In this document: positions 1 through 61,440 of the stretch, piece by piece
Position numbering within the stretch: position 1 is the first letter of the stretch
Layout of the letters: each line of letters starts with the position of its first letter
Source of the DNA: Candidatus Poribacteria bacterium
GTDB lineage: Bacteria > Poribacteria > WGA-4E > WGA-3G
Assembly: GCA_963667805.1 (NCBI GenBank)
Contig: OY764016.1
Location: 2,346,998 to 2,410,997 of the forward strand
Length of the DNA: 64,000 bases
Direction: 5' to 3'
The notes under the pieces: model-generated
Databases searched by the model: none
Told to the model about the DNA's origin: nothing
What the model saw: the letters and a program-made list of their open reading frames with translations, nothing else
Program-made: the position numbers and the translations under genes

Positions 1-450
1 CCCGGAACCGTCCATTTCTTGGACGGAGAAGCAGGCGAACCGCAAGCCGAATGTGATCGACTTAATCGAATTATCTCGCAACATCAGATTGACGTGGCGT
101 TCGTAGGTATCGGTGAGAATGGACATCTCGCTTTCAACGATCCACCGGCGGATTTTGAGACAGAAGATCCGTATATCTTGGTGGAATTAGATGAGGCATG
201 CCGGCTGCAACAGGTCGGCGAGGGTTGGTTTGGAGGCATTGATGATGTGCCGACCCAAGCAATTTCAATGTCCATTCGCCAAATCGTGAAGGCGAAAGCA
301 ATTGTTTGCACTGTGCCGGATGAACGAAAGGCGGAGGCAGTGCGGAATTGCTTGCACGGCGAGATAACGCCATTGCACCCTGCTTCGATTTTACAGACGC
401 ATCCAGATTGTGCGGTATTTTTGGACGCCGGGTCGGCATCGTTGTTGTAG
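1..450 (+). CDS. nagB: glucosamine-6-phosphate deaminase/isomerase family protein (NagB-like), 5' end outside window
   Basis: Open frame from position 1; motif [14 protein letters not shown] matches the NagB/6-phosphogluconolactonase family signature; stop at 450. Confidence 0.7.
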
Positions 451-476
451 AAAATGGAGGGTGTCGATGAAAGATG

Positions 477-1516
477 CAATTAGAGTTGGGATCATTGGTG
501 TCGGTGGGACAATCGGCAGCACGACCGCTATTCTCGCCGCAGAGCCGAACGTAGAACTCGTCGCTTTGGCGGATCCGGATCCCACCCGCAGGAAACGGGT
601 CTTGGATGGGATTAAAGGGGTCCGCGTTTTCGATGATTATCGGCAGATGTTTGACGCCTGCGATTTAGACGCAGTCTGCATTGGACTTCCGACGTGGATG
701 CACGCCCCTGTCTCGCAGGAAGCGTTGGAACTTGGATTGCATGTACTCTGTGAAAAACCACCATCAAACGATGCAGCAGAGTTAATACCGGTCACGCAGC
801 TTGCCGCAACCAAAGGTCTTGTTTATATGTTCGTCCGCCAATCGCGGTTCACGTCCCAGTTGATGGAGGGACGTAGGCTTGTGCAGGCTGGGGAACTCGG
901 GGACGTATATTACGCGGAGACTCGATGGATACGCACGCGATGGTGTTCTGCACGCGGATGGCGGCACGATAAAGCGAAAGGTGGTGGGGTCCTCCTGGAT
1001 CTCGGTATTCACGCCATTGATAACGTCTGGTTTATGATGGGCAATCCGCGTCCCACAGAGGTCATGGCTGGAATGTATTGCACTTTTTCCGATCTCGCGC
1101 CTCCTGAACAAATTTACACCGCAGATGATGCTGCTTGCGGGTTTGTGCGGTTTGAGAACGGGTGCACCTTGCATTTTGCTGTCGCGTTTTCGATGAATAC
1201 CACAAATCGGCAGGCGCCAGCAAAGGGGAGCGATCTGGTCAAAAGTGAGACGCAGGAGTTTCAACTTTACGGAACGAAGGGAGGCCTCGAAAGCGGAAAA
1301 CTACTCGTTGGGACACCGGACGGTGTTAAGGTCAAACCCATAAAAGCACCCCCACAGAAGGCGAATGAGGTAACACTTCAGGCGCGAGAATTCATTCGAG
1401 CGATTCGGGAAGGCGATGAACCCCTTAATTCCGGTTCACAGGCAGTAATGCTGATGCAAATGCTCGATGGAGCAATGAAATCCAGTGAAATCGGCAGTGC
1501 CGTTGCGATTCTTTAA
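477..1516 (+). CDS. Gfo/Idh/MocA family oxidoreductase
   Basis: N-terminal Rossmann motif IRVGIIGVGGTIG, EKP motif (LCEKPPS), typical length; SD GGAGGG before ATG 477; TAA stop lies inside repeat module A. Confidence 0.8.
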
Positions 1517-1655
1517 TTTTACTTTGCGGTTCGGTGAGGCAGGTTGGGACATTCATGTTCCTTTCCGTATATCTGAAAAAACCCCAAGCAAAAACCCCTC
1601 AACTACGCTTACGGGCTGCGCGCTTTTGTTATGCTTGTTGCAGGCTAAGGTTTTG
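1512..1655 (+). repeat. intergenic repeat family 1, full copy (modules A-B-C-D)
   Basis: TTTAATTTTACTTTGCGGTTCGG (A) ... CCTTTCCGTATATCTGAAAAAA (B) ... CCCAAGCAAAAAC..CTACGCTTACGGGCTGCG (C) ... GTTGCAGGCTAAGG (D, inverted); module A contains TAA stop of upstream gene. Confidence 0.8.
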
Positions 1656-4980: not shown

Positions 4981-5108
4981 CATTCCTCAGCCGTAGCCTG
5001 CAACAATACGCAGAAATACCCTATCAAAAACACGCAGACGGATTTGAGGGATGTTCATCACAGTTTTAATCAATGTCATTCTTCCGCAAGGTAAGATTAA
5101 AAATTCAA
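4981..5108 (-). repeat. intergenic repeat family 1, diverged full copy
   Basis: CCGTAGCCTGCAACAATACGCAGAAATACC (D) ... CCGCAAGGTAAGATTAAAAATTCAA (A, inverted) containing TAA stop of minus-strand gene 5097..6149. Confidence 0.7.
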
Positions 5109-6149
5109 TCCAAGGATATCCCGATTCCGTGCAGTGTCGGTTTCTCCGCCCGCAAAGTCATCAAAAGCGACATCGGTCGTTTCGATAATATGTTTGGCAA
5201 TAAACGGTGCACCTTCTGCCGCCCCTTGCTCTGGACTTTTAACACAACATTCCCATTCCAGGACCGCCCAGCTGTCGTAACCCGCTTCGGTCAGGAGTGT
5301 GAACACCTGTGTGAAATCCACTTGCCCATCACCAAGTGAACGGAATCTGCCAGCACGTCCAGCCCATGATTGATAACCTCCGTAAACCCCAACCCGACCT
5401 GTTGGACGGAATTCAGCATCTTTAACGTGGAATCCCTTGATGCGTTCGCTGTAAAGTCGGATGAAGTCGATATAGTCGAGCTGTTGAAGGAGAAAATGGC
5501 TTGGGTCGTAGTTGAGGCAGGCGGCGGGATGGTTGTCCGTATAATCTAAGAACATCTCATAGGTCGCACCGTCGTAAATGTCTGAACCCGGATGGAGTTC
5601 GTAGGCGAAGACCTGACCGTTATCGTGTGCCAGATCCAGAAGTGGTCGCCAACGTGCGGCGAGTTCTTTGAACGCCTCTTCAATAATTCCATCGGGACGC
5701 TGGGGCCACGGGTAGATCGTATGCCACGCGAAGCCACCTGAAAGCACAGGAATGACATCCAGTCCCATATTCACCGAGGCGTGGATACATTTCGTTAATT
5801 CTTCTGTTGCCCATGCTGTTCTTTCGGCACCTCGTAAGCCGGGCGGATGGAACGCCTCAAACATAACTTCATACGCGGGATGCACAGCCAAGACCTGTCC
5901 AGCGAGATAACCGGCGACCTCTGTCGCTTCAAGTCCCATCTCGTTGAGTGTCCCTTTGAATTCGTCGCAATAGGTTTTAGATTCAGCGGCTTTTCCGATG
6001 TCAATGACGCGATCGTCCCAATTCGGGATTTGGACGCCTTTGTACCCCAAGCCCGCAACCCATTTCCCGATATTTTCCATCGTGTCGTATGGTGCCTCGT
6101 CCCGCATAAATTGGGCGAGGAAGATAGCTGGACCTTTGATTTTCGGCAT
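5097..6149 (-). CDS. sugar phosphate isomerase/epimerase (xylose isomerase-like TIM barrel)
   Basis: 350 aa; conserved HPGSD, YDPSHF and VKDAE motifs of the XI-like TIM barrel family; TAA stop embedded in repeat module A. Confidence 0.75.
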   Translation of the reverse strand: MPKIKGPAIFLAQFMRDEAPYDTMENIGKWVAGLGYKGVQIPNWDDRVIDIGKAAESKTYCDEFKGTLNEMGLEATEVAGYLAGQVLAVHPAYEVMFEAFHPPGLRGAERTAWATEELTKCIHASVNMGLDVIPVLSGGFAWHTIYPWPQRPDGIIEEAFKELAARWRPLLDLAHDNGQVFAYELHPGSDIYDGATYEMFLDYTDNHPAACLNYDPSHFLLQQLDYIDFIRLYSERIKGFHVKDAEFRPTGRVGVYGGYQSWAGRAGRFRSLGDGQVDFTQVFTLLTEAGYDSWAVLEWECCVKSPEQGAAEGAPFIAKHIIETTDVAFDDFAGGETDTARNRDILGLNF

Positions 6150-6416
6150 TCTACCTGTTACTCCTGTCTTTGTATGTAATCCGTAACAATATAAGAGGTG
6201 TAAGTGTTGTTATTAAGTACGCCATTCAGTTTCAAATCGGCGAAAAATAATTACCAAAAGTTCGCAAACTTCGGGTATAATATACAAAAGTTGCTGTGTA
6301 ATGTCAAGAGTTTTAGAGGTAGATATAAGGTCTTTTAATTTTTCCAATTATCCGAATCGCGGATTATACAGGTTTCACAGATAATAACCTTTTATTAAAA
6401 ACGCAGCCCGTAATGA

Positions 6417-6440
6417 AATTATGCCTTAAACGGCATAATT
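6417..6440. promoter_or_regulatory. perfect palindrome in divergent intergenic region (candidate operator)
   Basis: AATTATGCC-TTAAAC-GGCATAATT, 9-bp arms, between divergently transcribed 5097..6149 and 6546..7391. Confidence 0.35.
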
Positions 6441-6506
6441 TGTCTTTGCTTTACATTTGGAGGGCGGATATACGGAAATGCCCATCAAGTACGAAACCCA
6501 CCTCAT

Positions 6507-6530
6507 CGAACCGCAAGGTATAATTAAAAA
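6507..6530 (-). repeat. repeat family 1, solo module A upstream of ABC ATPase start
   Basis: CGAACCGCAAGGTATAATTAAAAA, 16 nt before GTG 6546. Confidence 0.6.
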
Positions 6531-6545
6531 GCGAAAGGAAAAAGA

Positions 6546-8202: not shown

Positions 8203-8237
8203 TACTGAATTGGGTTATTGTACTACATTGAATTATC

Positions 8238-11200
8238 ATGGAGGAGTTGATGTCAGGATATTATAGATTTCCAACAATTGGTCAAGATACCATTGTTTTT
8301 GTCTGTGAAGATGATTTGTGGAGTGTTCCAACCGAAGGTGGAATTGCGCGGCGACTTACGTCAAATCTCGGTGCGACGAGTTCTCCACGCTTATCACCGG
8401 ATGGTGAACTACTTGCGTTCACGGGACGTGAAGAAGGTCCGTCAGAAGTGTATGTGATGCCCGCGCTCGGCGGCGAAGCAAAGCGACTCACTTATCAGGG
8501 GAGCAACGCTGCTATTGTCGACTGGGATGCCGATAGCAAGACGATTCTCTATGCCAGTAATGCGGGGTTGGCATTTGATCCGTGGATATGGAAAATCTGT
8601 GCGGAGGGCGGCGAACCGCAACGTTTATCCTACGGTCCTGCGAACCATATCGATTTCAGCGGTGATGGGGGCGTTGTCCTCGGTAGATTGACCCGTGAAC
8701 CTGCGCGCTGGAAACGCTACCGCGGCGGCACTGCCGGACAAATCTGGATTGATCCCGAAGGGGATGGACAATTTCAACCGCTCGCGCCCGTAGATAGCAA
8801 TTTCACGACACCGATGTGGATCGGTGAACGTATCTATTTTATTTCTGACCATGAGGGTGTTGGCAATATCTATTCCTGCCTCCCGACGGGTGAAGACATT
8901 CAACGCCATACACATCAGGATACCTACTACTGTCGTTCCGCGCAGACGGATGGCACGCGTATTGTCTACCACGCCGGTGCCGATCTGTTTGTTTATGAAA
9001 TTGGGAACGACACTGAAACCCGTGTTGATGTCGAATTTCGAAGCCCACGGACCCAGCGGCAGCGAAAGTTCGTCAGCCCATCATATTATCTGCAAGATTA
9101 TGCCCCGACCCCGGACGGTCACGCATTGGCAGTGACGGTTCGAGGGAAACCCTTTACGATGGCGAATTGGGAAGGCGCAGTACTCCAACACGGCGAGCGC
9201 AACGGAATACGCTATCGCTTTACGGAGTGGCTCAATGACGGTAAGCGTCTTGTTACGCTCTCCGATGCTGAGGGCGAAGAGGCACTTGAAATCCATACAC
9301 GTGATGGGAGCGCTGAGATTCTTCGGCTTGACGCGCTTGACATCGGACATGTTCGGCAACTTGCGGTCGCCCCGCAAACCGAAGGCGATGAGAAGGATCA
9401 GCTGCTTCTTATCAATAATCGTCTTGAACTTTTACACATTGATTTAGAGACACAAGAGATGCGGGTACTCGACAAAGGGCATTATCAGAATATCCGAGAT
9501 GTCGCGTGGTCGCCTGATGGTAAATGGTGTGCGTATAGTTTTGCCTCCACAGAAACCACGCGTTCAATCAAACTCTGCAAGATTGAAACGGGTGAGACGT
9601 GGTTCGTTACGGATCCAGAATTCAACGATTTCGGTCCAGCGTGGGATCCAGAGGGGCAGTATCTCTATTTTCTCTCTTACCGCGAGTTCAATCCGATCTA
9701 CGATGCACTCCACTTCGATCTTGGGTTTCCTACGGCAATGCGTCCGTTGTTGGTGACCTTGCAAAAAACCTTGGGCCATCCGTTCATCCCTGAACCTCGT
9801 CCGCTTGAGGAAGAGAAAGAGGATAAAGATGAAGGAGAGGCGAGACAGGATGACGAGGATAAGGCATCTGATGAGAAATCTGAGCAGAAGCCGGAGAAAC
9901 GCATCACAATAGATCTGGAAGGCATTACACAGCGCGTCGTCGCCTTCCCGTATCCGCACGGACATTATGGGCAAATCGCTGGTATTGAAGGCAAAGCACT
10001 TTTTACGGCGTTTCCGGTCCAAGATACACCCCCAGACGATGATGATGACAGCAGACCGAGAGGTGTGCTCCATGCCTACGACTTCAAAGAACAGAAAAAG
10101 GAGAGACTGGTCTCCGGCATTAATGATTTTCAACTTTCGCGTGATGCGAAAACGCTTGTCTATTCCACTGGAAATCGGTTGCGCGTTATCAAGGCAGGCA
10201 AAAAGACTGAAGGCGATTCCAAGTCTGGGAGTCGGGGCGGTCCGAGTCGACAGACGGGTTGGATTGACCTGAGTCGGGTCAAAGCCTCCGTCGTTCCAAC
10301 GGCTGAGTGGCATCAGATGTATCGGGAGGCGTGGCGGCTTCAGCGGGATTACTTCTGGACAGAGGATATGTCGGATGTGAATTGGGAGCATGTGTATCAA
10401 CGGTATCTACCGCTCCTTGAACGGATCGCAACGCGCGGTGAATTTTCGGATTTGATGTGGGAGATGCAGGGGGAACTCGGCACCTCACATGCGTATGAAA
10501 TGGGTGGGGACTATCGGAACTCACCGAATTATGCGCAAGGATTTCTCGGTGCGGATTTCGCTTACGATGCGGAAAGCAATGGGTATCGCATCACGCACAT
10601 CCCGCGCGGCGACGGCTGGGAGTCAACAAAGGATTCCCCACTGAATGCCCCCGGCATTAATGTCCGAGAAGGCGATATTCTGCTTGCTATTGCCGGACAG
10701 CGTGTCAGCGAAACGGTTTCACCGGGTGAACTGCTCGTGAGTCTCGCAAATCAGGAGGTTCAAGCGATCTTCCGAAACGCAAACGACGGTGAGGAACGCG
10801 TCGTCACACTCAAAGTGCTGCAAAGTGAAAGCCAGCTTCGGTATCGCGAATGGGTATCCAAAAATCGGCGGTATGTCCATGAAAAAACGGAGGGTAAAGT
10901 CGGGTATGTGCACATTCCTGATATGGGACGCCGTGGGTATGCGGAGTTTCACCGCGGGTTTCTCGCTGAGGTGAGTTATCCCGGTCTGTTGGTCGATGTC
11001 CGCTACAATGGGGGTGGACATGTTTCGCAACTGCTTTTAGAGAAGTTATCTCGCCGTCGGATTGGGTATGACGTTCCACGGTGGGGCACACCGCATCCAT
11101 ATCCAGATGCCTCTGTTTTGGGTCCGATGGTGGCTGTCACGAACGAGAACGCGGGTTCCGATGGCGATATTTTCTCGCACTGTTTCAAGTTGATGGAGTT

Positions 11201-15435: not shown

Positions 15436-16361
15436 GCAAGCGAAAGCCTGAAAAGGTGAATCTTTCAGAATATCCACTGCTTCAGATAATAGGACAAACA
15501 CCGCTCGCTAAAATAGATCTTTTTGCAAACGAGTTGCCGAACGTTGATATCTACGCGAAGGTGGAAACCTACAACCCCGGCGGCTCGATTAAAGATCGAC
15601 CGGTCTTAAGGATGCTCACTGAGGCGATTGCATCGGGAGAACTCACACGCGAAAAAGTTATCCTCGACTCCAGCTCCGGCAATGCAGGGATTGCTTACGC
15701 GATGATAGGTGCCACACTCGGCTACAAAGTCGAACTCGTGATCCCGGACAACGCCAGCGAAGAACGAAAAAAACGGATCCACTCACACGGTGCAGACATC
15801 ATCTATACGGATGCTATCCTCGGTTACGATGAAGCCCTCCGAGAAGTCGATCGGCGTTATGAAGCGGATCCTGAGCGGTATTTCTTCAAATCGCAATACG
15901 AAAACGACAACAACTGGCGCGCCCATTATGAAACAACGGGTGTCGAAATTTGGAACCAGACAGGCGGAAAAGTTACACACTTTGTCGCAGGTGTGGGAAC
16001 GGGTGGGACCATCACGGGTGCCGGTAGACGGCTTAAAAGTTATAATCCCGACATCCAAGTCTGTTCCATTTCACCAGAGGCGTTCCCAGGCATCGAAGGC
16101 CTTAAACCGCTCGGACATCCAGACGACATCGTTCCAGAAATCTTGGATGAATCCGTGATTGATTGCCGGATTCCTGCGACCATTGAAAATGCACACGAAA
16201 TGTGCAGTCGACTCGCACGACGGGGGTGGTTCGTCGGTCAATCTTCGGGTGGCTATCTCTACGGCGCGTATAAAGTTGCCCAACAAATTCAGGAAGGTGT
16301 TATCGTCACAGTGTTTAATGATTTGGGAGAACGCTATTTCAGTACAAGATTATGGGATTAA
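15432..16361 (+). CDS. PLP-dependent cysteine synthase family protein (CysM/CysK-like)
   Basis: PGGSIKDRP lysine-PLP motif, SSGNAGIA, GTGGTITG glycine loop. Confidence 0.85.
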   Translation: MSKRKPEKVNLSEYPLLQIIGQTPLAKIDLFANELPNVDIYAKVETYNPGGSIKDRPVLRMLTEAIASGELTREKVILDSSSGNAGIAYAMIGATLGYKVELVIPDNASEERKKRIHSHGADIIYTDAILGYDEALREVDRRYEADPERYFFKSQYENDNNWRAHYETTGVEIWNQTGGKVTHFVAGVGTGGTITGAGRRLKSYNPDIQVCSISPEAFPGIEGLKPLGHPDDIVPEILDESVIDCRIPATIENAHEMCSRLARRGWFVGQSSGGYLYGAYKVAQQIQEGVIVTVFNDLGERYFSTRLWD

Positions 16362-16412
16362 TTTTTAATAATTCGAAAGGCGTTCACTGTAGCGATAAGT
16401 TTCATTCTGAAT

Positions 16413-16435
16413 AAACCGCAAGGAAAATTATAAAT
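16413..16435 (-). repeat. repeat family 1, module A forming the translation initiation region of DUF1015 gene
   Basis: AAACCGCAAGGAAAATTATAAAT immediately followed by ATG; AAGGA to ATG spacing 11 nt. Confidence 0.7.
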
Positions 16436-17727: not shown

Positions 17728-17862
17728 AACCGTATCTGTAGAGCACAAAAAGCGCAGCTCGTAATGAAATGGAGGGGTTTTTGCTTGGGTGTTTCTTCAG
17801 ATTTGAGAAAAGAACGTGAAATTCCAGACACATGTTGTTTAACCGCAAGGAAAATTAAAAGA
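17728..17862 (-). repeat. intergenic repeat family 1, full copy (inverted), module A abuts ATG 17863
   Basis: GGAGGGGTTTTTGCTTGGGTGTTTCTTCAGATTTGAGAAAAG...AACCGCAAGGAAAATTAAAAGA collinear with reverse complement of copy 1512..1655. Confidence 0.75.
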
Positions 17863-18903
17863 ATGTATTATGAACAGGAACGGGATACATTAGCATTTTC
17901 GCATCAATTATATGCGGAGACCCCGCGTCAACTCGCATTTCAGGCGAGGAGCATTACAGAGGCAGAAGCCTGGCAGCGCGAACTTCGGGCAAAACTTATC
18001 GAATTAGTGGGTGGTTTTCCGCAGGAAACCTGCGACCTACACCCCCAAGTGCTGGATTCTTGCGAATTTCCCACCTATTTCCGCGAGACGGTGGAGTTTC
18101 AGAGTCGTCCACACGCCAACATTTTCGGGTATTTCCTTTCTCCGAAGCCTCTCGACAGTTCAACCCCGAACCCAACGATCCTCTGCTTAGCAGGGCACGG
18201 ACGCGGTGTAGATGATATTGTCGGAATCGAGGAAGATGGCACCCTGCGATCAGAATATGGCGGTTATCAGAACGACTTCGCGCTCCAATGCGTAGCAAAC
18301 GGGTACACCGTGCTTGCCATTGAACAATTCGGGTTTGGTCACCGACGGGATCCGATTGCGCACGAGAAGGGTGGCGGGAGTTCTTCATGTCAACCGAGTG
18401 CTGGTGCTGCGCTCCTCTTAGGCTATACAATGGTAGGGTGGCGGGTTTACGATGCGATGCGCGCCCTGGACTATCTGGCAACGCGCCCGGAGGTCGATAT
18501 GAACCGCATCGGCGTGATGGGAATATCTGGCGGTGGCACAACGACCTTCTTCACTGCCGCAATTGATGAACGGGTCAAGGCAGCCATTGTGAGCGGTTAC
18601 TTCAACACGTTTCGGGACAGTATCCTGAGCCTCAGCCATTGTATAGACAATTATATACCAAATGTGCTACAATATGCGGAAATGTACGACATCGCAGGGT
18701 TGATTGCACCGCGCGCCCTATTCGTTGAATCCGGGACGGAAGACACGATTTTTCCGATTGAAGCCACCCGCTTTGCGGTTAACGCGGCACAAGCAATTTA
18801 CAAATGCTTCGATGCTGAAGACAAATTAGGTCTTGAAGTATTTGAGGCAGGACATAGTTTCCACGGTGTTGGCGCATTTGAATTTCTTAAACAGGTGCTA
18901 TAA
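17863..18903 (+). CDS. alpha/beta hydrolase (dienelactone hydrolase / acetylxylan esterase-like)
   Basis: GISGGG nucleophile elbow, downstream Asp/His; start ATG 17863 exactly 11 nt after AAGGA of repeat module A. Confidence 0.65.
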   Translation: MYYEQERDTLAFSHQLYAETPRQLAFQARSITEAEAWQRELRAKLIELVGGFPQETCDLHPQVLDSCEFPTYFRETVEFQSRPHANIFGYFLSPKPLDSSTPNPTILCLAGHGRGVDDIVGIEEDGTLRSEYGGYQNDFALQCVANGYTVLAIEQFGFGHRRDPIAHEKGGGSSSCQPSAGAALLLGYTMVGWRVYDAMRALDYLATRPEVDMNRIGVMGISGGGTTTFFTAAIDERVKAAIVSGYFNTFRDSILSLSHCIDNYIPNVLQYAEMYDIAGLIAPRALFVESGTEDTIFPIEATRFAVNAAQAIYKCFDAEDKLGLEVFEAGHSFHGVGAFEFLKQVL

Positions 18904-18917: not shown

Positions 18918-19712
18918 GTGGCAATTGAACTGTTTTCGATCGGCACGGAGTTAGTACTGGGTCAGATTCAGGACACCAACGCTCACTGGATTGCACAGCA
19001 AATCCTCCAGATTGGTGGCGAACTGAGGCGAGTCACAATGCTACGCGACGACCGCGAGGAAATGTCCGAGGCATTGGATTCGGCAATAGAACGGGAAACA
19101 TCGCTTATTCTTACAACAGGGGGTCTTGGACCTACACCCGACGATATGACCGTTGAGGTGGTGTCTTCACTCATCGACACGACCCCTGTAGTGAACGAAG
19201 AAACCGTCGCCGAATATCGGAGACGCCGAGAGATGTCAGAGAACGATGTCATCAATGAAGCCTTGATGAAAATGGCGACTGTGCCGGAAACGGCTGTCGT
19301 CTTGCAGAACCCTGCAGGATGGGCGCCCTGTATCAGCGTGGCACACAAGTCTTCTACCATCATGATGATGCCCGGTCCACCGCGCGAGATGAAGGCAATT
19401 TTTGAAACCCATATTCAACCCCTGATCGCAGAACGTTACCGCGCAGAAATTACAACGACGCGGGTGCACGTCAATATGTTTGAAGCCGAAGTTTCACCAC
19501 TGATGCAGAAAGTGATGGAACGCTACCCAGATGTCTATCTAAAGGCGTATGTCGCTCTCCGCGAAGCGGATGGGGACACAATGCCGGTCGATCTTGTTTC
19601 AACAAGCACGGACAAAGCGGATGCCGAAACGCAATTGGAACTCGCTACGTCTTACTTCCAAGAACTTGTTGTTGAAGTCGGCAAACGTTTCAGTTTCGAA
19701 GACGAATCATAA
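18918..19712 (+). CDS. CinA-like / MoaB-MogA molybdopterin-binding domain protein
   Basis: [25 protein letters not shown] and [11 protein letters not shown] motifs; GTG start after AAGGAGA. Confidence 0.7.
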
Positions 19713-19749
19713 ACGGACGCTGACAGTCCGTAAAAAGGAGATTTATACT

Positions 19750-20109
19750 GTGAATCGCAGACCTTCAGGAAATTCAAGGAGACCGCAGACGCGGCGGCCT
19801 AACCAGAAACGGAAGCCAAAACCTAAGAAACGACGAGATGCCGATGCCAAATTGGATACTGAAGTCCAGCCCGAAAGCGAAGAGCAACCCTCCTCTAAAA
19901 AGGATAAAATAGAGGTGGAAGGCACGGTCGTGGAACCTTTACCCAACGCGATGTTTCGCGTGGAATTGGAAAATAAGCATCAGATTCTCGCACATATTTC
20001 CGGCAGAATGCGAAAATTCTTCATCAAAATTTTGCCCGGTGATAAGGTGACTGTAGAACTCTCGCCTTACGATCTTACAAGGGGTCGTATTACCTACCGG
20101 AAAAAGTAG
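19750..20109 (+). CDS. infA: translation initiation factor IF-1 with about 47-aa basic N-terminal extension
   Basis: C-terminal 72 aa match IF-1 S1-like fold ([61 protein letters not shown]); GTG 19750 after AAGGAGA; N-terminal extension rich in R/K/P. Confidence 0.8.
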
Positions 20110-20233: not shown

Positions 20234-21049
20234 ATGAAACCTGCCGGATTAATTCACGCCACTCTCGCCGCTGAAAAGGAAACAGCCCGACTCTTGGAGG
20301 CTATTGAAGCGAAACAGAGGCAGGTAGAAGAACTTACAATAGCAATCGAGACGTTAAGATCAGAAGTTGACGTATTTGAGAGACGCTACAACGCTCATAT
20401 CAGTCAATATTACCTCGAACTCGATAAAGTTGAACTCGAAATGAAGGCGTATCGCCTCCGTCTACAGCTGCGTCGAGAAAATGTAAACGAAGAAGAGATA
20501 GAAGCGCGGGTAGAATCATGTTTCAGGGCAAGCCGCGCACGTGTTGACGCTTATGAGGCAGTAAATGAAGCAGAACCAACGCCTCCAGCGGACAAACTTC
20601 CTGATGCCAAAGCGAAGCATTTACAAGACCTCTACCGCAAACTCGCCAAACGGTATCATCCAGACAAAACCATAGACATCGAGGAATCGGAACGACGCGA
20701 ACAACTCATGCCGCTCATTAACCGTGCCTATAACGAACACGACCTTGAGACCTTAGAGCGGTTAAGCCTCGGTGAAACAGAACTACATGTCCCTGAAAAA
20801 ACAGTGATTGAGAAGCGAAAAGCGTTACACACAGAACTGCGACAGCTTAACCGAGCCGCGAGCCACTTGCGATTTGAGATAAACCGACTCAAGACGGGAC
20901 GCACCTATCAACTGAAACAACAGGTAGAAACCGCCCAAAAAACGGGGACAGATCTCCTTACGACCCTTGCCAAAGATTTAGAGCGAAAAATCAAAGCAAG
21001 CCGAGGGCAACTCGCACGCCTCATGAATATGTGGCACCGTGCGCAATGA
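20234..21049 (+). CDS. J-domain-containing coiled-coil protein
   Basis: Internal J-domain-like segment LYRKLAKRYHPDK (HPD motif) flanked by predicted coiled coil. Confidence 0.5.
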   Translation: MKPAGLIHATLAAEKETARLLEAIEAKQRQVEELTIAIETLRSEVDVFERRYNAHISQYYLELDKVELEMKAYRLRLQLRRENVNEEEIEARVESCFRASRARVDAYEAVNEAEPTPPADKLPDAKAKHLQDLYRKLAKRYHPDKTIDIEESERREQLMPLINRAYNEHDLETLERLSLGETELHVPEKTVIEKRKALHTELRQLNRAASHLRFEINRLKTGRTYQLKQQVETAQKTGTDLLTTLAKDLERKIKASRGQLARLMNMWHRAQ

Positions 21050-21054
21050 AGGAT

Positions 21055-21143
21055 TTTAATTTTACCTTGCGGAAGAATAACGCGAGTTTAGATTTTGATG
21101 TGCTTTTCTAAGTACTCGCCTGCGCCGGTGTTGCAGGCTACGG
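21055..21143 (+). repeat. intergenic repeat family 1, short copy (A ... D)
   Basis: TTTTAATTTTACCTTGCGG 6 nt after TGA stop of 20234..21049; GTTGCAGGCTACGG at 21130..21143. Confidence 0.7.
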
Positions 21144-23127: not shown

Positions 23128-24780
23128 TCACTTCTCTAAAACGATCCGAACCTCCGTATCCGTGCCGTGCTCGCCAACACCCATCTCAGCAGTCATCGGA
23201 CCGAGAGACTCCAGCGGAAAGAGATTTTCTGTGATATGTCGCGTCCCTGTCGGGTCCAACTTCTGCCCTGAAAGCGATAGAAGTACCGTTAGGATCGGAA
23301 GGAAACGCTTCAATTCCGGCACGAACAACTTCGGTTGAACAAACGCTTGAATGCCACTTGCATCAGCGGAAAATGCTATATCCTCCAAGAGAGGTGCGTT
23401 ACCTGTCGTCGTATCAATCACAGACTTCAATCCTGATAGTGTTGTCCCCAAGACGAAATAGTCGTCAACGATTGCGTATCCACCCGTAACGGCTAATAGG
23501 AAATTGAGTCGGAGCTGCACGGGTTGCAGCGTGACACCCTTGTAATCCTGCCGTTCAAGGTATTCAAGCGGTTTGCCGGCAATTGCGGGCTTTCCGTGCT
23601 TCACGATTCCCAAAATCTCGTTTAGGACATCGGGAGCCTTCGCATGCGCCAGCAAAACCAACGTAGGCACAACCGACACTTCACCCGGATCAGGAGCAAC
23701 CAACAAGACGGTTAAGTCCGCACCCAAAATCTCGGAGAGATCTATATCGCCAAAGAGCGCTTGCATCTGTTTCAGAATAGGAAGCGAAGCGACAAAGGCA
23801 GTGCGTTCGGGAAAAGCAAGGAACGGTTTCGCGTTGTCCGCAGTCGGCAGATGAGAAAGGTTGGCGTCAACACTGTTTCGGAACCGATGTCGTGACACAA
23901 TCACACCGTCTTCATACCGGTTGCTGAACGTCCAAGTTCCTGAATTCCCAAACCACCCCAAAATCTGTTTGACAAGCACATCGGAACGCATACTATCGAA
24001 CAAGGGAGTAAATTGCTGCATATCCACATACCCAGTATTTTTGTCCCTATTATAATCGTCCTGTATATCCACCGCCATGGGATGTGCAGCGAGAAATCCT
24101 TGATTTTTCGGATCAGTTTTAGTTTCAGAAAGCTCGGTATAGAGGTCAAGCGTCTCAGCCAATAACAACGGGTCGAGGGTTAAAATACCAATTCTGCCGA
24201 TGAAAGTATAACTAAAATTGCGTGGATACCCTATGATGGTATTAATCGTGAATCCGCTGTAATCGGTTTGAATGCGCTCGTATTTTGGGTTGATTGCATC
24301 CGTTGCTGTAATCGCTTCAATACTCAGTTTTTCCTGTGCGCCTACTGCAGAGATAAGCAGAAACGAGAGTTCTCCTTCACGTCGATACAGGGCAAGAATG
24401 GCTTCCTCCCCAAAATAGCCCGTAATCGTCTTCAGGTCGAGTCTACCCCCCATTTCGTATTCCCAGAGCTGCTTCTGATAGACGAGTTGTTCCCACCATC
24501 GCTGCTTCTGAATCTCAGTGAGAATCGGCATCTTAGCCGTCTGTTTTCCGAATTCACTGCGATTGAAAGTTTCCACCACGCCTTTTAATTCTTTGAGTGT
24601 CAAATAGCAGATTGGAGACCTGGGGAGTAATGTAATAAGATGCTGTTCCGGTTCCCACAGCGCGGTCCGGTGATAGATAATGGATAGCAAAATGATAACC
24701 CCAATAAGAACGATTAGACTGATGAAAGCAATTCTTTTAATTTTTCCTTGTGGGTCGGTCAGGGAACTTAGAACTTTCAT
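23128..24780 (-). CDS. hypothetical membrane-anchored protein (N-terminal TM helix, about 550 aa)
   Basis: Single N-terminal TM (IAFISLIVLIGVIILLSII) then large soluble domain; annotated ATG 24780 makes first 16 codons derive from repeat modules A/B, so true start is uncertain. Confidence 0.5.
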   Translation of the reverse strand: MKVLSSLTDPQGKIKRIAFISLIVLIGVIILLSIIYHRTALWEPEQHLITLLPRSPICYLTLKELKGVVETFNRSEFGKQTAKMPILTEIQKQRWWEQLVYQKQLWEYEMGGRLDLKTITGYFGEEAILALYRREGELSFLLISAVGAQEKLSIEAITATDAINPKYERIQTDYSGFTINTIIGYPRNFSYTFIGRIGILTLDPLLLAETLDLYTELSETKTDPKNQGFLAAHPMAVDIQDDYNRDKNTGYVDMQQFTPLFDSMRSDVLVKQILGWFGNSGTWTFSNRYEDGVIVSRHRFRNSVDANLSHLPTADNAKPFLAFPERTAFVASLPILKQMQALFGDIDLSEILGADLTVLLVAPDPGEVSVVPTLVLLAHAKAPDVLNEILGIVKHGKPAIAGKPLEYLERQDYKGVTLQPVQLRLNFLLAVTGGYAIVDDYFVLGTTLSGLKSVIDTTTGNAPLLEDIAFSADASGIQAFVQPKLFVPELKRFLPILTVLLSLSGQKLDPTGTRHITENLFPLESLGPMTAEMGVGEHGTDTEVRIVLEK

Positions 24781-24897
24781 GTGCCTTTCCGTATATCTGA
24801 AAAAATGCCCAAGCAATACGCAGAAATACCCAAGCAAAAACACCCCTCCGCTACGCTTACGGGCTACGGGTTTATTTTTTTTAATTCTTCCTTGCGG
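24735..24897 (+). repeat. intergenic repeat family 1, composite copy (A-B-C-A')
   Basis: TTTTAATTTTTCCTTGTGGGTCGG (24735..24758), CCTTTCCGTATATCTGAAAAAA, ...CTACGCTTACGGGCTACGGG, second A TTTTTTTTAATTCTTCCTTGCGGG (24875..24897); first A lies inside annotated N-terminus of minus-strand gene. Confidence 0.75.
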
Positions 24898-25062
24898 GAT
24901 TGTCATTTGATTATAGCACACCCAGTTTCGGTAAACAATCAAATTGACGAGAGATTTGGTGTGCGTCTGAAGCGCGATTGCAGTCTGTCCAGCCGCAGCC
25001 GTAAAAAACTTGCCTGCAGCTGAAAAATGATGTAAAATATTAAAGTTATCTTATGAAAGAGG

Positions 25063-29858: not shown

Positions 29859-29955
29859 AGCATACCTTATGGAAGTGCTATATCCGCTGGCGAGGTTTCT
29901 TGGGAAACACCCAATCAAAAACACCTCGTCGACAGAAAAAAGGAGAATTGATTGA

Positions 29956-39909: not shown

Positions 39910-39980
39910 GAAGGGCAATCAGCAGTCAGCAGTCGGCAGGAATAGTTGTCAGCCATAAGCAGAAAGCCATAAATTAAAAT

Positions 39981-40718
39981 ATGAACACCGAACAGAAGAG
40001 ACCGCAACGTCCTGAACCCCCGAATATCCAAGAAGTCGGCGCACCCCTCGACGGGAAACCGCAGGTGAGCGATCGGCGTTTGTTTTTCCAACTCCATGTC
40101 TTTAAAGATTGTTTAGATTCTAACCGTATCGTTGAAAAACTTGAGAAGGGTAGTCTAAACGCGGTCTTATATGACGATCTAAATCATCCAACAGGCCTGG
40201 GCGTGCTTTTAGCCGCAGAGGATCCAGCAGCGTTGATAGTTGAATCACGAACCTTATTAGACGTTTCTAACCGCTCATCCCTCTCCTATCGTCCAGAAAT
40301 GACCATGACAGGTAGAACCTACTCAAGTGGTAGAGAACCGAATCTGGAAGAGTGGCTCCTCAACAAACCGCTCCAAAACGTTCTCAACCCCGATTTTCCA
40401 TGGGCGATTTGGTATCCATTGCGCCGAAGCCCTGAATTCTATCGTCTTGAACACCGTGAACGGGGTCGCATCTTAGGCGAACACGCTTTGCTGGGGCGTG
40501 GTTATGCCGCGGGTGGATACGCCAGTGACATCCGACTCGCTTGCTTCGGATTGGATACAAACGACAATGAATTCGTTATCGGAGTGGTCGGGCCCGATTT
40601 ACATCCCTTATCGCGTTTGATTCAGGACATGCGTCAAACAGAACAGACCACCAAATACATCGAATCCCTCGGTCCCTTCTTTGTTGGAAAGGTTCAAAAG
40701 CAATTTTTTAACAATTGA
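39981..40718 (+). CDS. chlorite dismutase family protein (Cld/HemQ-like)
   Basis: C-terminal motifs FGLD..., DMRQTE, LGPFFVG collinear with Cld/HemQ family; 245 aa. Confidence 0.65.
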   Translation: MNTEQKRPQRPEPPNIQEVGAPLDGKPQVSDRRLFFQLHVFKDCLDSNRIVEKLEKGSLNAVLYDDLNHPTGLGVLLAAEDPAALIVESRTLLDVSNRSSLSYRPEMTMTGRTYSSGREPNLEEWLLNKPLQNVLNPDFPWAIWYPLRRSPEFYRLEHRERGRILGEHALLGRGYAAGGYASDIRLACFGLDTNDNEFVIGVVGPDLHPLSRLIQDMRQTEQTTKYIESLGPFFVGKVQKQFFNN

Positions 40719-40795: not shown

Positions 40796-40832
40796 GTAGA
40801 GGAACGGTGACCAGATGCCCATAGTTTAAAAT
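40796..40832 (+). promoter_or_regulatory. conserved ~40-nt 5' leader (family 3) upstream of GldF-like permease
   Basis: GTAGAGGAACGGTGACCAGATGCCCATAGTTTAAAAT-ATG; about 75% identical to 48348..48385. Confidence 0.5.
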
Positions 40833-41558
40833 ATGAGAAATATTCTTGCAGTTTGCACAAAAGAACTCTATACCTATTTCGTTTCACCGATCGCCTATTT
40901 CGTCTGTTTCGTCTTTACAGCGATTTCGGGCTTCCTGTTCTCCATCCTGCTCATCAGTGCGAGCAACGTTGGCGGGACCGGCGGATACGTGATGGAAACC
41001 CTCTTCGGTAACATGGCGATTGTCTTACTCTTTTTCACGCCAGTGCTGACAATGAAACTCTTTGCAGAAGAACGGAAATCGGGAACGATCGAACTACTCC
41101 TTACCTCCCCAATCACAGACGGACAAGTGGTTCTCGGCAAATTCTTTGCGAGTTGCACATTGGTCCTGATTATGCTTGGCTTAACGCTTCTATTTCCACT
41201 CTTAACCCAACGTTTCGGTTATTTGGACAGTGGACTCCTCATCAGCGGTTATTTGGGTATCATCCTCATTAGTTCTTCATTTCTATCATTAGGTTTACTG
41301 ATGTCGTCAATGTGTAAAAACCAACTCGTCGCTGCATTGACGAGTTTCGGTATCCTCATAACATTATGGGTGATCGGCTCGCTCTCAGCGCGTGGTGGAC
41401 CGATAGCGAAATTCCTGAGTTATCTGTCGTTACCTGAACACTACCGAGATTTCTCACGCGGTATCATCCTGTTGAAAGATGTTATTTACTACATCAGTTT
41501 CACATGTGTCTGCTTATTTGCGACATTCAAGTCGATTGAATCATCAAAATGGAGATAG
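40833..41558 (+). CDS. ABC-2 type transporter permease (GldF-like)
   Basis: 241 aa, 6 TM, ABC-2 pattern, followed by GldG-like gene. Confidence 0.7.
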   Translation: MRNILAVCTKELYTYFVSPIAYFVCFVFTAISGFLFSILLISASNVGGTGGYVMETLFGNMAIVLLFFTPVLTMKLFAEERKSGTIELLLTSPITDGQVVLGKFFASCTLVLIMLGLTLLFPLLTQRFGYLDSGLLISGYLGIILISSSFLSLGLLMSSMCKNQLVAALTSFGILITLWVIGSLSARGGPIAKFLSYLSLPEHYRDFSRGIILLKDVIYYISFTCVCLFATFKSIESSKWR

Positions 41559-45024: not shown

Positions 45025-45100
45025 CTGTAGCCTGCAACAATACGCAGATAAACACTATTTATCCGATCTACCTTATCGAACCGCAAGGTAAATTAGAAAT
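45025..45100 (-). repeat. intergenic repeat family 1, short copy (D ... A), module A abuts ATG 45101
   Basis: CTGTAGCCTGCAACAATACGCAGATAAACAC ... CGAACCGCAAGGTAAATTAGAAAT-ATG. Confidence 0.7.
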
Positions 45101-46811: not shown

Positions 46812-46965
46812 ATCCTGTCGTTTAAGAATTATCGGTATCAGCCAAAAGTTTCGTTCAGTGCAATTTACCCTCTCTTGTTGGACACCCCAGAGCGGTGAAT
46901 TATCATAGAGAAACCTCTTACTGAAAACTGACAACCGATAACTGATAACTCATAAAGGAGCATTG

Positions 46966-48186
46966 ATGGCACTACGTAGTCGAATCTCACCACGGTTTTT
47001 TGTCAATGAACTCGCCAGTGCTATGTCGGAAGATTGGGATACCTCCAGCAAGTTCGTTCGCTATCAACTCGCCAAGGAAAGTTTCAACTGGCGACACCCA
47101 CTCGGTGCCAAACACGGCAAAGGCGACGCTATTCAACTGGTGAGCCTCCGTATTACCGATATGTGCAACCTCCGTTGCCATTCCTGTGGACAATGGGGCG
47201 ATAACGGATACCTACTTGGAAAGTCCATGAAAGAGCTGAAGCAGCGCGAGGTTCCGGTTGAAGTGTATAAAAACCTTGTGGATCAGATTGTGGATGAAGG
47301 CTGGTCTCCGGTGTGGTACATCTGGGGCGGTGAACCCATGCTGTATCCGGGCATCATCGAATTGATGCACTATATCAAAGAGCGAGGCATGCCTATATCA
47401 CTGGTGAGTAACGCAACGAACATCGCCAGACGCGCCGACGATATTTTGGAAACCTGTAAAATTATCTACCTCAGTGTTGATGGACCGAACGAGGAAGTTC
47501 ACAATACACAACGTCCCGGTCTAACGCCAAACTACGATAACTTTAAAGACGTCAAGGCTGCATTAGAAACACTTAGTGCCGCAAAAGAGAAACGGAATAT
47601 AAAGTTTCCTTATATTATTCCCCTCAGCTGCGTCACGATGTATAACATTGACGTTGTCGTAGATCTCTATAAATTCACGCATCAATACGCAGACGCGCAA
47701 ATCTTTTACTTGACCTGGTGGATAGATTCCGAATCGGCACAGGAACACACAGAAGATTTCGAGAAACGCTTCGGGTTCAAACCGCAAACCCATTACGGTT
47801 GGATAGGCACATGGAAAGACTTCGATCACGGTGTCATCTTGGATCGTTTTGAAGAGATGGAAAGCATCTCCAACGAAAAGAGACGCTGTCCTCCGATCAT
47901 GATGCCGCGACTCAACACACGCGGTGAGATTCAACGGTATTACACAGATCACGATCAAACCTTTGGATATAATCAGTGTGTCAGTATCTATATGACAATG
48001 GAAATCGATAGCAATGGTGACGTTAGCCTCTGTCGCGATTACCACGACTATATCATCGGCAATATCAAAACGGATAAGGTCGTTGATATGTGGAACAACC
48101 AGAAGGCGATGAAATTTCGGCAGTCGGTGAGTAACGATGGACCGATGCCCGTCTGTCGCCGCTGCTGCGGACTCATGGGTTTTTAA
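46966..48186 (+). CDS. radical SAM / SPASM domain protein
   Basis: CNLRCHSC (CX3CX2C) radical SAM cluster motif at residues about 68-75, GGEPMLYP SAM-binding, Cys-rich C-terminus (CRDYHDY...CRRCCG) typical of SPASM/twitch; TAA stop inside module A. Confidence 0.7.
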   Translation: MALRSRISPRFFVNELASAMSEDWDTSSKFVRYQLAKESFNWRHPLGAKHGKGDAIQLVSLRITDMCNLRCHSCGQWGDNGYLLGKSMKELKQREVPVEVYKNLVDQIVDEGWSPVWYIWGGEPMLYPGIIELMHYIKERGMPISLVSNATNIARRADDILETCKIIYLSVDGPNEEVHNTQRPGLTPNYDNFKDVKAALETLSAAKEKRNIKFPYIIPLSCVTMYNIDVVVDLYKFTHQYADAQIFYLTWWIDSESAQEHTEDFEKRFGFKPQTHYGWIGTWKDFDHGVILDRFEEMESISNEKRRCPPIMMPRLNTRGEIQRYYTDHDQTFGYNQCVSIYMTMEIDSNGDVSLCRDYHDYIIGNIKTDKVVDMWNNQKAMKFRQSVSNDGPMPVCRRCCGLMGF

Positions 48187-48204
48187 TTCTACCTTGCGGT
48201 TCGG
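48181..48204 (+). repeat. repeat family 1, solo module A containing TAA stop of radical SAM gene
   Basis: TTTTAATTCTACCTTGCGGTTCGG with TAA at 48184..48186. Confidence 0.65.
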
Positions 48205-48347
48205 TTAGGATAAACTGGTAACTGGTAAGTTTTTAATTTTGGAGTACTGATCTGCCTTCCACTGCATTTCAGGCAGATTCTTGGTGCAATTCGCACGGGG
48301 TATGTTCCCTGAAACCCTTTCGTACTTAACCAGAAACCATCGCGAAA

Positions 48348-48385
48348 CGTAGTGGAGCGATGCTCAGAGGACCATAGTTAAAAAT
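48348..48385 (+). promoter_or_regulatory. conserved ~40-nt 5' leader (family 3) upstream of sugar phosphate isomerase
   Basis: GTAGTGGAGCGATGCTCAGAGGACCATAGTTAAAAAT-ATG. Confidence 0.5.
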
Positions 48386-61312: not shown

Positions 61313-61440
61313 TTTTTTAACTTTCCTTGCGGTGTAATAAGCGTAGTCTCATGCTTGGCGTATTCTTTTTCCGAGTCGCCCTCCACTTCGTTTCGGGCTG
61401 CGCTTCCGGTACTCACAATACTGATTTTAAGTTTCCTCAA
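61313..61440 (+). repeat. intergenic repeat family 1, diverged copy, module A abuts fabV start codon
   Basis: TTTTTTAACTTTCCTTGCGGTG directly after CAT (fabV start, minus) then TAAGCGTAG / CGGGCTGCGC fragments of module C. Confidence 0.65.

Follow-up and report, generated by a model that had tools for sequence, protein, structure and literature searches.

Positions 1512–1655 of the 64,000-nt stretch of Candidatus Poribacteria DNA analysed here (the window) hold, in reverse orientation, one copy of a mosaic intergenic repeat of ~90–140 nt, which has a high copy number, is specific to Poribacteria and lies dispersed in the genomes of sponge-associated members. From the sequence and position of its copies, we consider it moderately likely that this repeat serves as a 5′ leader and translation-initiation cassette that is lineage-specific, turns over quickly and has a REP-like head. 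A role as supplier of gene-start signals seems not to have been described for bacterial repeat elements.

A covariance model trained on copies from relatives found 12 copies in the window at E<1. These include all 10 intervals of the preliminary description, whose dispersed element family is real and non-random. Across 843 kb of Poribacteria loci the covariance model gave 153 matches at E<1e-4. A 22-base pattern searched against 185,579 reference genomes matched almost exclusively in Candidatus Poribacteria MAGs, which bears out the proposal that the family is confined to this lineage. The copy sample was ascertained through the search pattern, and the geometry counts below rest on 196 copies. 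Non-orthologous copies from about 45 assemblies share the unit, which excludes that the copies are merely conserved orthologous UTRs. In the window, the end module originally called A has four matches at ≤3 mismatches against 0.00 expected, and there are 11 intergenic CCGCAAGG-type cores. Rfam 15, with its motifs from Poribacteria-like metagenomes, gave no match in the window at the gathering score and nothing relevant on copy-rich stretches at E<=1 or <=10, and a known RNA family was rejected on this ground. Likewise, no relevant paper was found in the literature on Poribacteria repeats, MITEs, REPs and start-codon placement, and Poribacteria do not figure in the main text of a 2017 survey of 224 motifs. 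The absent Rfam match and the absent literature agree with the initial impression that this is not a described element.

On the sense strand, the unit consists of a GTAG-tagged hairpin (P1), a conserved core (CGGATATACGGAGAGG...CCTGACCGAA), CCGCAAGG and a 12-nt A/T-rich tail. The fuller core consensus between P1 and CCGCAAGG reads CGGATMTACGGAGAGG-cACgTcAA...CCTsACCGAA. The tag (GTAG, GTAA or GCAG) lies 69 nt before CCGCAAGG, and the ~60 nt that separate P1 from the tail are non-palindromic and conserved over ~45 assemblies; conservation of the unit is well above that of ordinary spacers. The four modules of the preliminary description map onto this plan: A corresponds to the tail with CCGCAAGG and CCGAA and B to the core CAGATATACGG; C combines P1 with an optional insert of 19–22 nt; and D is a second P1 of which only the 5′ half, with its GTAG head, is present. 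The AAGG(A) motif is invariant and lies 11–12 nt from ATG and 4 nt from ATT. The internal TT of the tail can shift by one position (AAAATTAAAAAA vs AAAAATTAAAAA), with the total of 12 nt kept. The unit has three GGA motifs (TGGAGG, CGGAGAGG and CAAGGA), the last at the ribosome-binding position; copies with T after GG (T-class) are without this last GGA. The sense strand of the focal copy is the minus strand, and its parts are as follows:

1510..1521, minus strand: A/T-rich tail TAAAATTAAAGA; the plus-strand gene 410..1516 takes its TAA stop from TTA 1516-1514 of this tail
1522..1529, minus strand: CCGCAAAG, one mismatch from the invariant CCGCAAGG
1530..1559, minus strand: variable stretch and conserved CCTCACCGAA
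1560..1575, minus strand: conserved core CAGATATACGGAAAGG (module B)
1576..1594, minus strand: optional insert TTTTTGCTTGGGGTTTTTT (part of module C)
1595..1619, minus strand: head GCAG (a GTAG variant) and P1, CCC-GTAAGCGTAGTTGA-GGG(G)
1633..1654, minus strand: orphan 5′ half of a second P1 with head, AAAACCTTAGCCTGCAACAAGC (module D)

Here, CCGCAAAG could form a CC-GCAA-GG mini-hairpin and contains a short Shine–Dalgarno-like AAGG. The optional insert is found in some copies only and is inverted in others. The other copies in the window, together with one empty site, are:

4993..5106, plus strand: full copy in reverse orientation relative to the minus-strand genes beside it; the TAA of gene 5097..6149 comes from the tail
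6403..6533, plus strand: full copy, sense, upstream of an ABC ATPase gene; GTG 6546 is 27 nt from GG
8203..8249, plus strand: empty site, an ordinary GGAGGAG Shine–Dalgarno site before ATG 8250
16353..16435, plus strand: copy with a degenerate 5′ end; CCGCAAGG, 12 nt, ATG 16436
17754..17862, plus strand: full copy with insert; CCGCAAGG, 12 nt, ATG 17863
21053..21141, minus strand: full copy, reverse to the flanking plus-strand genes; P1 of type CCTGC/GCAGG
24733..24867, minus strand: full copy, sense for gene 23128..(247xx); no ATG after the tail
24880..24897, minus strand: solo module A, in tandem directly upstream of 24733..24867; partial covariance-model match 24875-24986
45027..45100, plus strand: copy with truncated P1; CCGCAAGG, 12 nt, ATG 45101
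48180..48276, minus strand: full copy, reverse to plus-strand genes; gene 46963..48186 takes its TAA (48184-48186) from the tail
48346..48385, plus strand: short variant (covariance-model match 48332-48396) with the P1 loop and 3′ half joined to CCATAGTTAAAAAT, then ATG 48386
61313..61401, minus strand: full copy; CCGCAAGG, 12 nt, ATG 61312 (minus strand)

Several of these copies have counterparts at orthologous sites. The copy at 4993..5106 is conserved in locus L146 with its internal insert inverted, and the copy at 6403..6533, which has a 39-nt hairpin inserted in its P1 loop, is shared with the same locus. In L109, the module A of 48180..48276 is conserved together with its stop-codon overlap.

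P1 is a selected hairpin. Its cells are paired in 95.5% of cases, compared to 76.9% in shuffles, and 198 cells (50 in shuffles) are changed on both sides. The covariation score of 0.409 (0.145 in shuffles) was reached by 0 of 500 shuffles, and slid controls stayed at or below 0.089. The stem is short (4–6 bp) and occurs as CCC/GGG, TCC/GGA, CTT/AAG, CGC/GCG and CCTGC/GCAGG. On the sense strand, 32 G-U combinations stand against 11 A-C (p ~0.001), an excess that points to folding of the gene-directed strand. RNAalifold and a mutual-information scan found covariation in P1 only, and folding of the whole unit is weak (mean z −0.7), so that a large structured RNA was rejected. Support for a closing helix CGG.AGG/CCT.CCG is marginal, and an alternative helix GGAGGGCGGAT / ATCCGCCCTC was discarded at shuffle level. 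The tail and the start codon are predicted to be 70–99% unpaired.

The copies keep a fixed register to gene starts. Directly upstream of a start codon lie 130 of the 196 copies; in 114, a start codon with a long ORF follows 10–14 nt after GG (108 ATG, 4 GTG and 2 TTG), and in 82 the distance is exactly 12 nt (binomial p ~2e-55). The base after GG is A in most sense copies and T in 15 of 16 reverse copies (Fisher p = 7e-9), and the resulting AAGGA of the former is the better anti-Shine–Dalgarno match. Its spacing of 11–12 nt to the ATG is longer than the ~5–9 nt of the ordinary GGAG sites of the window, as read by eye; ordinary GGAGG sites precede about half of the window's genes. Within the window, the starts at 16436, 17863, 45101 and 61312 (minus strand) each lie exactly 12 nt after GG, as the claim of precise boundaries had it. 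Two further starts named there were misplaced: the GTG at 6546 does not adjoin the element, being 27 nt from GG, and the in-frame ATG 24780 does not follow module A but sits inside copy 24733..24867, upstream of that module. By analogy with the ATT cases described next, the gene in question, 23128..(247xx), probably starts at the tail's in-frame ATT 24741-24739; the next ATT, 24732-24730, is an alternative that is likelier than ATG 24780.

This use of ATT is probably not limited to one gene. Among 36 copies without a downstream ATG, the ORF is in frame with the tail ATT in 25, and in the other frames in 6 and 5 (p ~1e-5). In L059, the residue right after the ATT of MoaC aligns to residue 3 of E. 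coli MoaC, and at the position where element-free orthologues have MNDHIYD or MNTHIYD, L067 has (ATT)KNIYD. For MurQ in L113, ATT is the sole possible start. Several ATT cases have an in-frame ATG or GTG higher up in the element, at which translation may in fact begin. As ATT lies only 4 nt after GG, one Shine–Dalgarno geometry cannot serve both the ATG and the ATT starts. The idea that the element encodes a leader peptide or an N-terminal extension was rejected: of 106 copies, 63 have frame 0 open, and 56 and 29 have the other two frames open, so no coding constraint is visible.

Sense copies outnumber reverse copies by at least 5 to 1. A convergent stop of the upstream gene lies within 17 nt in 15 of 18 reverse copies, so that the boundary precision seen in the window extends, with the 82 starts at exactly 12 nt, over the whole lineage. 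In 9 of the 18, the TTA of the tail is itself the stop codon (TAA). The window agrees with what had been reported of it: the TTTAAT of the element contains the TAA stops at 1514-1516, 5097-5099 (minus strand) and 48184-48186, and the TGA 21047-21049 of gene 20234..21049 is 6 nt before the tail end of copy 21053..21141. Together with the in-frame ATT starts, these stops fit the suggestion that the element donates start and stop signals. The reverse copies are conserved at orthologous sites and almost all are T-class. This argues against a leader and initiation cassette, which gives no account of them.

Comparison of orthologues reveals rapid turnover. Of 89 comparisons, 40 show no element in the orthologue, irrespective of coding identity; about 25 gene pairs have it in common and 40 do not. 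Element-free orthologues have GGAGG-type sites before the same ATG, which fits the earlier idea of a lineage-specific expression cassette. At the empty site 8203..8249, for instance, the L146 orthologue has a ~140-nt element that ends flush with the same ATG. Filled and empty sites show that the spacer was replaced rather than cleanly inserted into, and the flanks of the copies have no common sequence. These two observations tell against a sequence-specific target at coding boundaries, as had been considered. The longest inverted match between the ends averages 4.2 nt (4.0 nt in shuffled sequences), and direct matches from flank to flank are at shuffle level, indicating neither terminal inverted repeats nor target-site duplications. 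Near-identical dispersed copies within one genome are absent from the sample; recent bursts were dismissed, the only near-identical pairs within a genome being local tandem duplicates. A tblastn search of 907 kb of Poribacteria sequence with a RAYT query gave no significant match, and no transposase linked to the element was identified. One IS200/IS605 element is present in the 907 kb; descent from the resident IS200/IS605 was rejected, as both ends of the tnpA-tnpB element in L117 are without similarity to the unit. The spread may be REP/RAYT-like or recombinational.

The cassette that we favour would work as follows. In the productive orientation, the unit would form the 3′-most part of a gene's transcribed 5′ leader, and its 3′ end would be a ready-made translation-initiation region. 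Here, the Shine–Dalgarno-like AAGG(A) would lie beside the CC-GCAA-GG hairpin, and after it an unstructured A/U-rich spacer would expose the start codon 12 nt downstream; without an ATG downstream, the AUU within the tail would serve as start. The unit would thereby replace the ordinary GGAGG Shine–Dalgarno spacer of orthologous genes. The family would be gained and lost rapidly between species, and also duplicate in tandem, and copies would mostly be retained where an ORF boundary coincides with the end of the tail: a start for sense copies and, for reverse copies, the TAA stop of the upstream gene, given by the tail TTTAAT. Several observations above count against this reading: the long spacing from AAGGA to ATG, the different spacing of the ATT starts, the in-frame codons higher up in some ATT cases and the weak folding of the whole unit. 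Its portability in particular is at odds with the want of inverted termini, target duplications, a linked transposase and near-identical dispersed copies.

An unlikely alternative is that the unit is a promoter of leaderless mRNAs. The 12-nt tail would then be a −10 hexamer (TAnAAT or AAAATT at −12 to −7) with a 6–7-nt discriminator, transcription would start from the A of the ATG, and the remainder would be upstream promoter DNA for an unknown factor. A −10 box 6–7 nt before the ATG is the signature for predicting leaderless genes, and T-class tails have TATAAT, TAAAAT or TAGAAT at exactly this distance. Starts are 95% ATG, some copies have a −35-like TTGACC/TTCACC at 16 nt, and 15 tails match a promoter-like pattern compared to 3 on the control strand. 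However, the consensus is without a −35 box (ACCCAC), and none of the copies is picked out by a sigma-70 scan of the window, on which ground a sigma-70 promoter within the unit was rejected. The sense copies are mostly A-class and have the poor hexamer AAAATT, whereas the good TAnAAT is concentrated in reverse copies, and the conserved quantity is the GG-to-ATG distance and not the hexamer-to-ATG distance. Leaderless transcription is also impossible for genes that start at ATT within the 'hexamer', and the G-U bias of P1 points to an RNA or single-stranded fold. Moreover, in keeping with an element that lies in a leader, conserved canonical promoters lie upstream of it: a TTGACA-17-TATCAT promoter in both species of the L052 and L126 pair, and a perfect promoter 133 nt upstream in L060. 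Over all copies, promoters are not enriched upstream.

We find it similarly doubtful that the unit is a selfish REP-like repeat without host function, inserted more or less anywhere and left by purifying selection where starts and stops still work, with the GTAG hairpin as the recognition site of a transposase such as RAYT. The head does combine a GTAG tag with a covarying palindrome as in GTAG REPs (PMC3733652). The presence or absence among orthologues independent of divergence, the tandem arrays (periods of 59–147 nt), the occurrence in both orientations and the confinement of the reverse-copy TAA to one of three frames, as left by a selective filter, all accord with such a repeat. Yet the conserved ~60 nt between P1 and the tail would be needless for a hairpin-recognising enzyme, and both the strong excess of sense copies and the 12-nt peak, far sharper than a tolerance filter predicts, are left over. 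The A/T split after GG tracks orientation, and the RAYT and IS200/IS605 results above offer no candidate enzyme or parent.

More improbable still is a cis-regulatory leader of a very large regulon, in which P1 and the GGA motifs would be the binding sites of a protein or small RNA that, in a CsrA-like manner, would jointly switch the translation of hundreds of genes. The conserved hairpin, the three GGA motifs with the last at the ribosome-binding position, the conservation above ordinary spacers and the G-U bias in P1 are consistent with it, and it is compatible with the cassette reading. Against it, the genes downstream have diverse functions, the element comes and goes quickly at orthologous genes, unlike in a stable regulon, and the T-class copies are without the last GGA.

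If the cassette reading is right, one repeat family is the translation-start region of roughly 1 in 5–10 genes across a whole candidate phylum, an estimate that rests on 12 copies among roughly 50–55 window genes. This family would repeatedly swap with ordinary ribosome-binding sites between close relatives, and dispersed bacterial repeats would be a routine source of start signals, beyond promoters, terminators and RNA-stability elements. The reverse copies exactly on stop codons and the fixed 12-nt register also bear on how repeats are placed or selected. In the annotation of Poribacteria MAGs, gene callers will misplace starts at in-element ATGs (e.g., 17764 for 17863) and overlook ATT starts, and element-encoded Phe-stop ends will be taken as native. 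A bolder reading, to which we give little credence, is that Poribacteria have a second, repeat-borne mode of gene expression, with a spreading mobile leader module, a hairpin-recognising factor and shared control. Genes would then have been converted from Shine–Dalgarno to module-defined initiation that tolerates AUU starts, and a dedicated factor would recognise the module via its GTAG hairpin. Hundreds of unrelated genes would come under one post-transcriptional control point, a bacterial counterpart of a shared leader sequence that is encoded in cis for each gene.

Among known systems, integron attC sites share the layout of stop codon, repeat and start codon, but they were set aside: the copies are flanked by housekeeping genes on both strands, and the majority are directed toward the gene downstream. 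The term 'MITE-like' from the preliminary description is not supported, as the unit has neither inverted termini nor target duplications; the one MITE trait found is presence/absence polymorphism at orthologous sites. The terms 'start codon', 'stop codon' and 'ribosome binding' are absent from a review of MITEs. Correia elements (CREE/NEMIS) have terminal inverted repeats and a TA target duplication, unlike the Poribacteria unit. They are dispersed in Neisseria as 100–200 bp repeats, mostly immediately upstream of genes, where they alter expression, are co-transcribed and invertible, are present or absent between strains, and act via sigma-70 promoters, IHF sites and RNase III cleavage (PMC10969869). 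For the fixed 12-nt register to the start codon, no counterpart was found. Rickettsia palindromic elements are repeats within reading frames that add codons to host proteins (PMC10969869). These elements lie in frame in the gene body and are translated throughout, whereas the Poribacteria unit gives only the last 1–3 codons (Phe-stop) or the first 3 (ATT-AAA-AAn).

The label 'REP-like' is apt for the 5′ head, a GTAG-tagged covarying hairpin, but not for the rest of the unit. As in GTAG REPs, BIMEs and REPINs, an unpaired GTAG-type tetranucleotide is followed by a palindrome with compensatory stem changes. GTAG REPs are high-copy and intergenic, have tandem and composite arrangements and occur as several families per genome (PMC3733652, PMC2817692), and the Poribacteria unit resembles them in copy number, intergenic location and both arrangements. 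In REPs, however, a palindrome of 20–40 bp forms the whole repeat, which is mostly downstream of genes and sits between unidirectional and convergent ORFs (PMC3733652). The Poribacteria hairpin is only the head of a 90–140-nt unit, two thirds of whose copies end flush with a start codon. In the tail, the resemblance is to another class of signals. A/U-rich S1-dependent enhancers and the A-rich Kozak-like contexts of Bacteroidota combine an unstructured A/U stretch with a weak or absent Shine–Dalgarno, and the Poribacteria tail likewise is an unstructured A/U-rich stretch directly before the start codon. Those contexts are compositional features of leaders, whereas the Poribacteria unit occurs as repeated copies with a conserved 70-nt upstream part.

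The dispersed family of intergenic elements put forward in the preliminary description is genuine. Module A (TTTAATTTTACCTTGCGGTTCGG) had four matches in the window at no more than three mismatches, against none in 100 shuffles, and a search of the window for its 8-nt core found 11 intergenic copies. A repeat finder recovered the same families, plus a longer similarity between 1512-1581 and 24736-24805. The covariance model R1, built from relatives, yielded 12 window matches at E<1, which covered every one of the ten intervals first listed and added two copies:

24875-24986, tandem partial copy (R1 covariance model)
48332-48396, short variant (R1 covariance model)

The sense strand of the focal copy (1512-1655) is the minus strand. 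In this copy, module A corresponds to the tail plus CCGCAAAG, B to the core, C to the insert plus P1 (the GTAG-tagged hairpin at the element head), and D to an orphan second P1 head. The window encodes many Gfo/Idh/MocA-like oxidoreductases and sugar-phosphate isomerase-like proteins, as judged by eye from translations. It also contains an IF-1 (infA)-like ORF (19549-20109), which is preceded by ~115 very basic in-frame codons and has no obvious canonical start near KKDKIEVEG.

The element is a family confined to Poribacteria. At least 114 stretches match the 22-base pattern CGAACCGCAAGGN{4,5}TTAAAA, which was scanned across 185,579 reference genomes; among the matches listed, almost all bear a Candidatus or uncultured Poribacteria label, a few carry the label 'uncultured bacterium' only, and one is an evident chance match. 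In a trial scan of viral contigs, matches were single and due to chance, apart from one contig that has many copies. Contig IMGVR_UViG_3300012932_000188, which is filed as viral, has at least nine copies in 22 kb and probably derives from a Poribacteria chromosome. Over 6.7 kb, the window shares 87% identity with L146 (OX639992.1), and it shares 91% with L109; both loci come from other Poribacteria assemblies, and the window thus represents a related Poribacteria species. Rfam 15 contained no matching family at gathering scores, nor at E up to 10 on copy-rich stretches, and we found no description of the element in the literature, which agrees with the preliminary description, where it was not recognised as a described element.

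An alignment of ~190 copies, written in gene-facing orientation, gave a unit consensus with the order aAAAcCG, GTAG, hairpin P1, CGGATMTACGGAGAGG, cACgTcAA with ~12 variable nt, AAcCCaCCTsACCGAA, CCGCAAGG, 12 nt such as AAAATTAAAAAA, and ATG. CCGCAAGG is preceded by GTAG at a distance of 69 nt and by TATACG at 42 nt. Copies are mosaic, as three P1 types, two 3'-half types and an optional ~22-nt insert (GTTTTTGCTTGGGTGTTTC) are combined. The insert is inverted between orthologous copies in the window (5013-5033) and L146, and is possibly a small module that can invert or move on its own. A solo insert occurs at 29904-29927, upstream of gene 29956. The copy at 6403-6533 carries a 39-nt insertion in the P1 loop that is absent from its L146 orthologue and that includes a 10-bp terminator-like hairpin (AAATTATGCC/GGCATAATTT, 6416-6441).

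Covariation support within the element is limited to P1. Here, 95.5% of alignment cells were paired (76.9% after shuffling) and 198 were changed on both sides (50 in shuffles). The P1 covariation score of 0.409, from an alignment fitted to the model, compares with 0.145 when shuffled (0/500 shuffles reached 0.409) and at most 0.089 in slid controls, and the same pairs emerged from an independent MAFFT/RNAalifold run. G-U pairs outnumber A-C pairs on the sense strand (32 vs 11), a mild indication that the gene-facing strand is the one that folds, whether as RNA or as single-stranded DNA. A scan of the element alignment revealed no other covarying column pairs; one of two candidate long-range helices was at shuffle level, the other was marginal, and the folding energy as a whole was not notable (z = -0.7). 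Structure prediction leaves the tail and start codon 70-99% unpaired.

The boundary census comprised 196 copies from 907 kb of fetched loci and the window. A start codon with an ORF of 60 codons or more was found 8-30 nt after GG in 130 copies and at 10-14 nt in 114 (108 ATG, 4 GTG, 2 TTG), with 82 at exactly 12 nt (p ~2e-55). The 12-nt distance is kept even where the inner TT moves by one. As the search pattern does not include the start codon, this register is not an ascertainment effect. Two starts that had been described as directly adjoining module A are displaced: GTG 6546 lies 27 nt from the motif, and ATG 24780 falls within the element, upstream of module A. An in-frame ATG within the P1 loop starts an ORF that crosses the element (17764-17862) and continues into gene 17863..18903; automatic gene calling would probably place the starts of this and similar genes too far upstream. 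A second recurrent start context, CCATAGTTaAAAATATG, was seen at 39964-39983, 40816-40835 and 48369-48388 and in L064, L094, L062 and L105. Within 48346-48388, where a P1 loop and 3' half adjoin it, this context resembles a relative of the element that has undergone internal deletion.

Some of the copies that lack a start codon in the register described above are upstream members of tandem arrays or local module A duplications. After 36 start-less copies, the long open frame is that of the tail ATT in 25 and the other frames in 6 and 5 (p ~1e-5). In MoaC (L059), the residue after ATT aligns to residue 3 of E. coli MoaC; an oxidoreductase (L067, L117) reads (ATT)-K-N-I-Y/F-D vs M-N-D/T-H-I-Y-D in element-free orthologues; and MurQ (L113) has no possible start other than ATT. 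The tail ATT is the probable start codon of these genes, rather than a proven one, since some have an in-frame ATG or GTG further up inside the element.

Reverse copies, whose tail faces the stop codon of the upstream gene, include the window's four 'stop' copies, two of which keep their position in L146 and L109. Eighteen reverse copies face a convergent ORF of 150 codons or more; its stop lies within 17 nt of GG in 15, and the TTA of ATTAAA forms a TAA stop in nine. The base after GG is T in 15/16 reverse copies vs 22/114 sense copies with ATG. Sense copies favour AAGGA over AAGGT, in line with selection for anti-Shine-Dalgarno pairing.

The sequence evidence is best described by a repeat-borne 5' leader and translation-initiation cassette with a REP-like head. 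The spacing is long for ATG (11-12 nt) and short for ATT (4 nt), which leaves the initiation mechanism uncertain; ordinary GGAG sites serve about half of the window genes. Alternatively, a subset of the T-class copies (AAGGT) resembles, and could be, a promoter positioned for a leaderless transcript. The unit consensus has no -35, and a promoter scan of the window marked no element copy as promoter-like. L052 and L126 share a conserved canonical TTGACA-17-TATCAT promoter, and the element lies between it and the ATG in L052, not in L126; in L060, a perfect promoter is found 133 nt upstream. Several copies have the recurrent motif GCGTAAGTCCTAC, or a close variant, some tens of nt upstream (L052, L141, L146).

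The element is subject to turnover. Presence or absence at orthologous sites, a check proposed at the outset, showed an element-free partner in 40 of 89 comparisons between different assemblies, independent of coding identity (74%-94%); pairs with the element in both genomes are counted twice here, and ~25 distinct gene pairs share it. In empty partners, the same ATG is preceded by an ordinary GGAGG site or by a shorter ATAGTTAAAAAnATG context, and at 8203-8249 the window itself is the empty allele relative to L146. In close pairs (90-94% identity) the entire spacer is replaced, not interrupted, and the proposed search for target-site duplications found none. Near-identical copies within one genome are all local tandem duplicates. 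Turnover is thus established, a transposition mechanism is not. Derivation from IS200/IS605 was rejected, as the ends of the sample's sole such element, a complete insertion sequence with tnpA (139 aa) and tnpB (370 aa) at L117:3372-4900, are unrelated; right-end relatives of the latter occur in L133, L132, L120 and L040. Window spacers also contain heptamer tandem repeats, GCAGTCA x3.6 (39915-39939), ACTGATA x5.1 (46920-46955) and AACTGGT x2.3 (48213-48228), and in other Poribacteria loci many of the spacers that lack the element are filled with heptads of this kind. They are reminiscent of cyanobacterial STRR heptamers.

The suggested likeness to MITEs does not hold, as we found neither terminal inverted repeats in the element nor a duplicated target, and the likeness to REPs is confined to the head. 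For a fixed start-codon register, or for donation of ATT starts and TAA stops, our literature search found no description in any bacterial repeat. The head looks like that of GTAG REPs (PMC3733652), and in its behaviour the Poribacteria element resembles Correia elements, which are expression-modifying repeats (PMC10969869).
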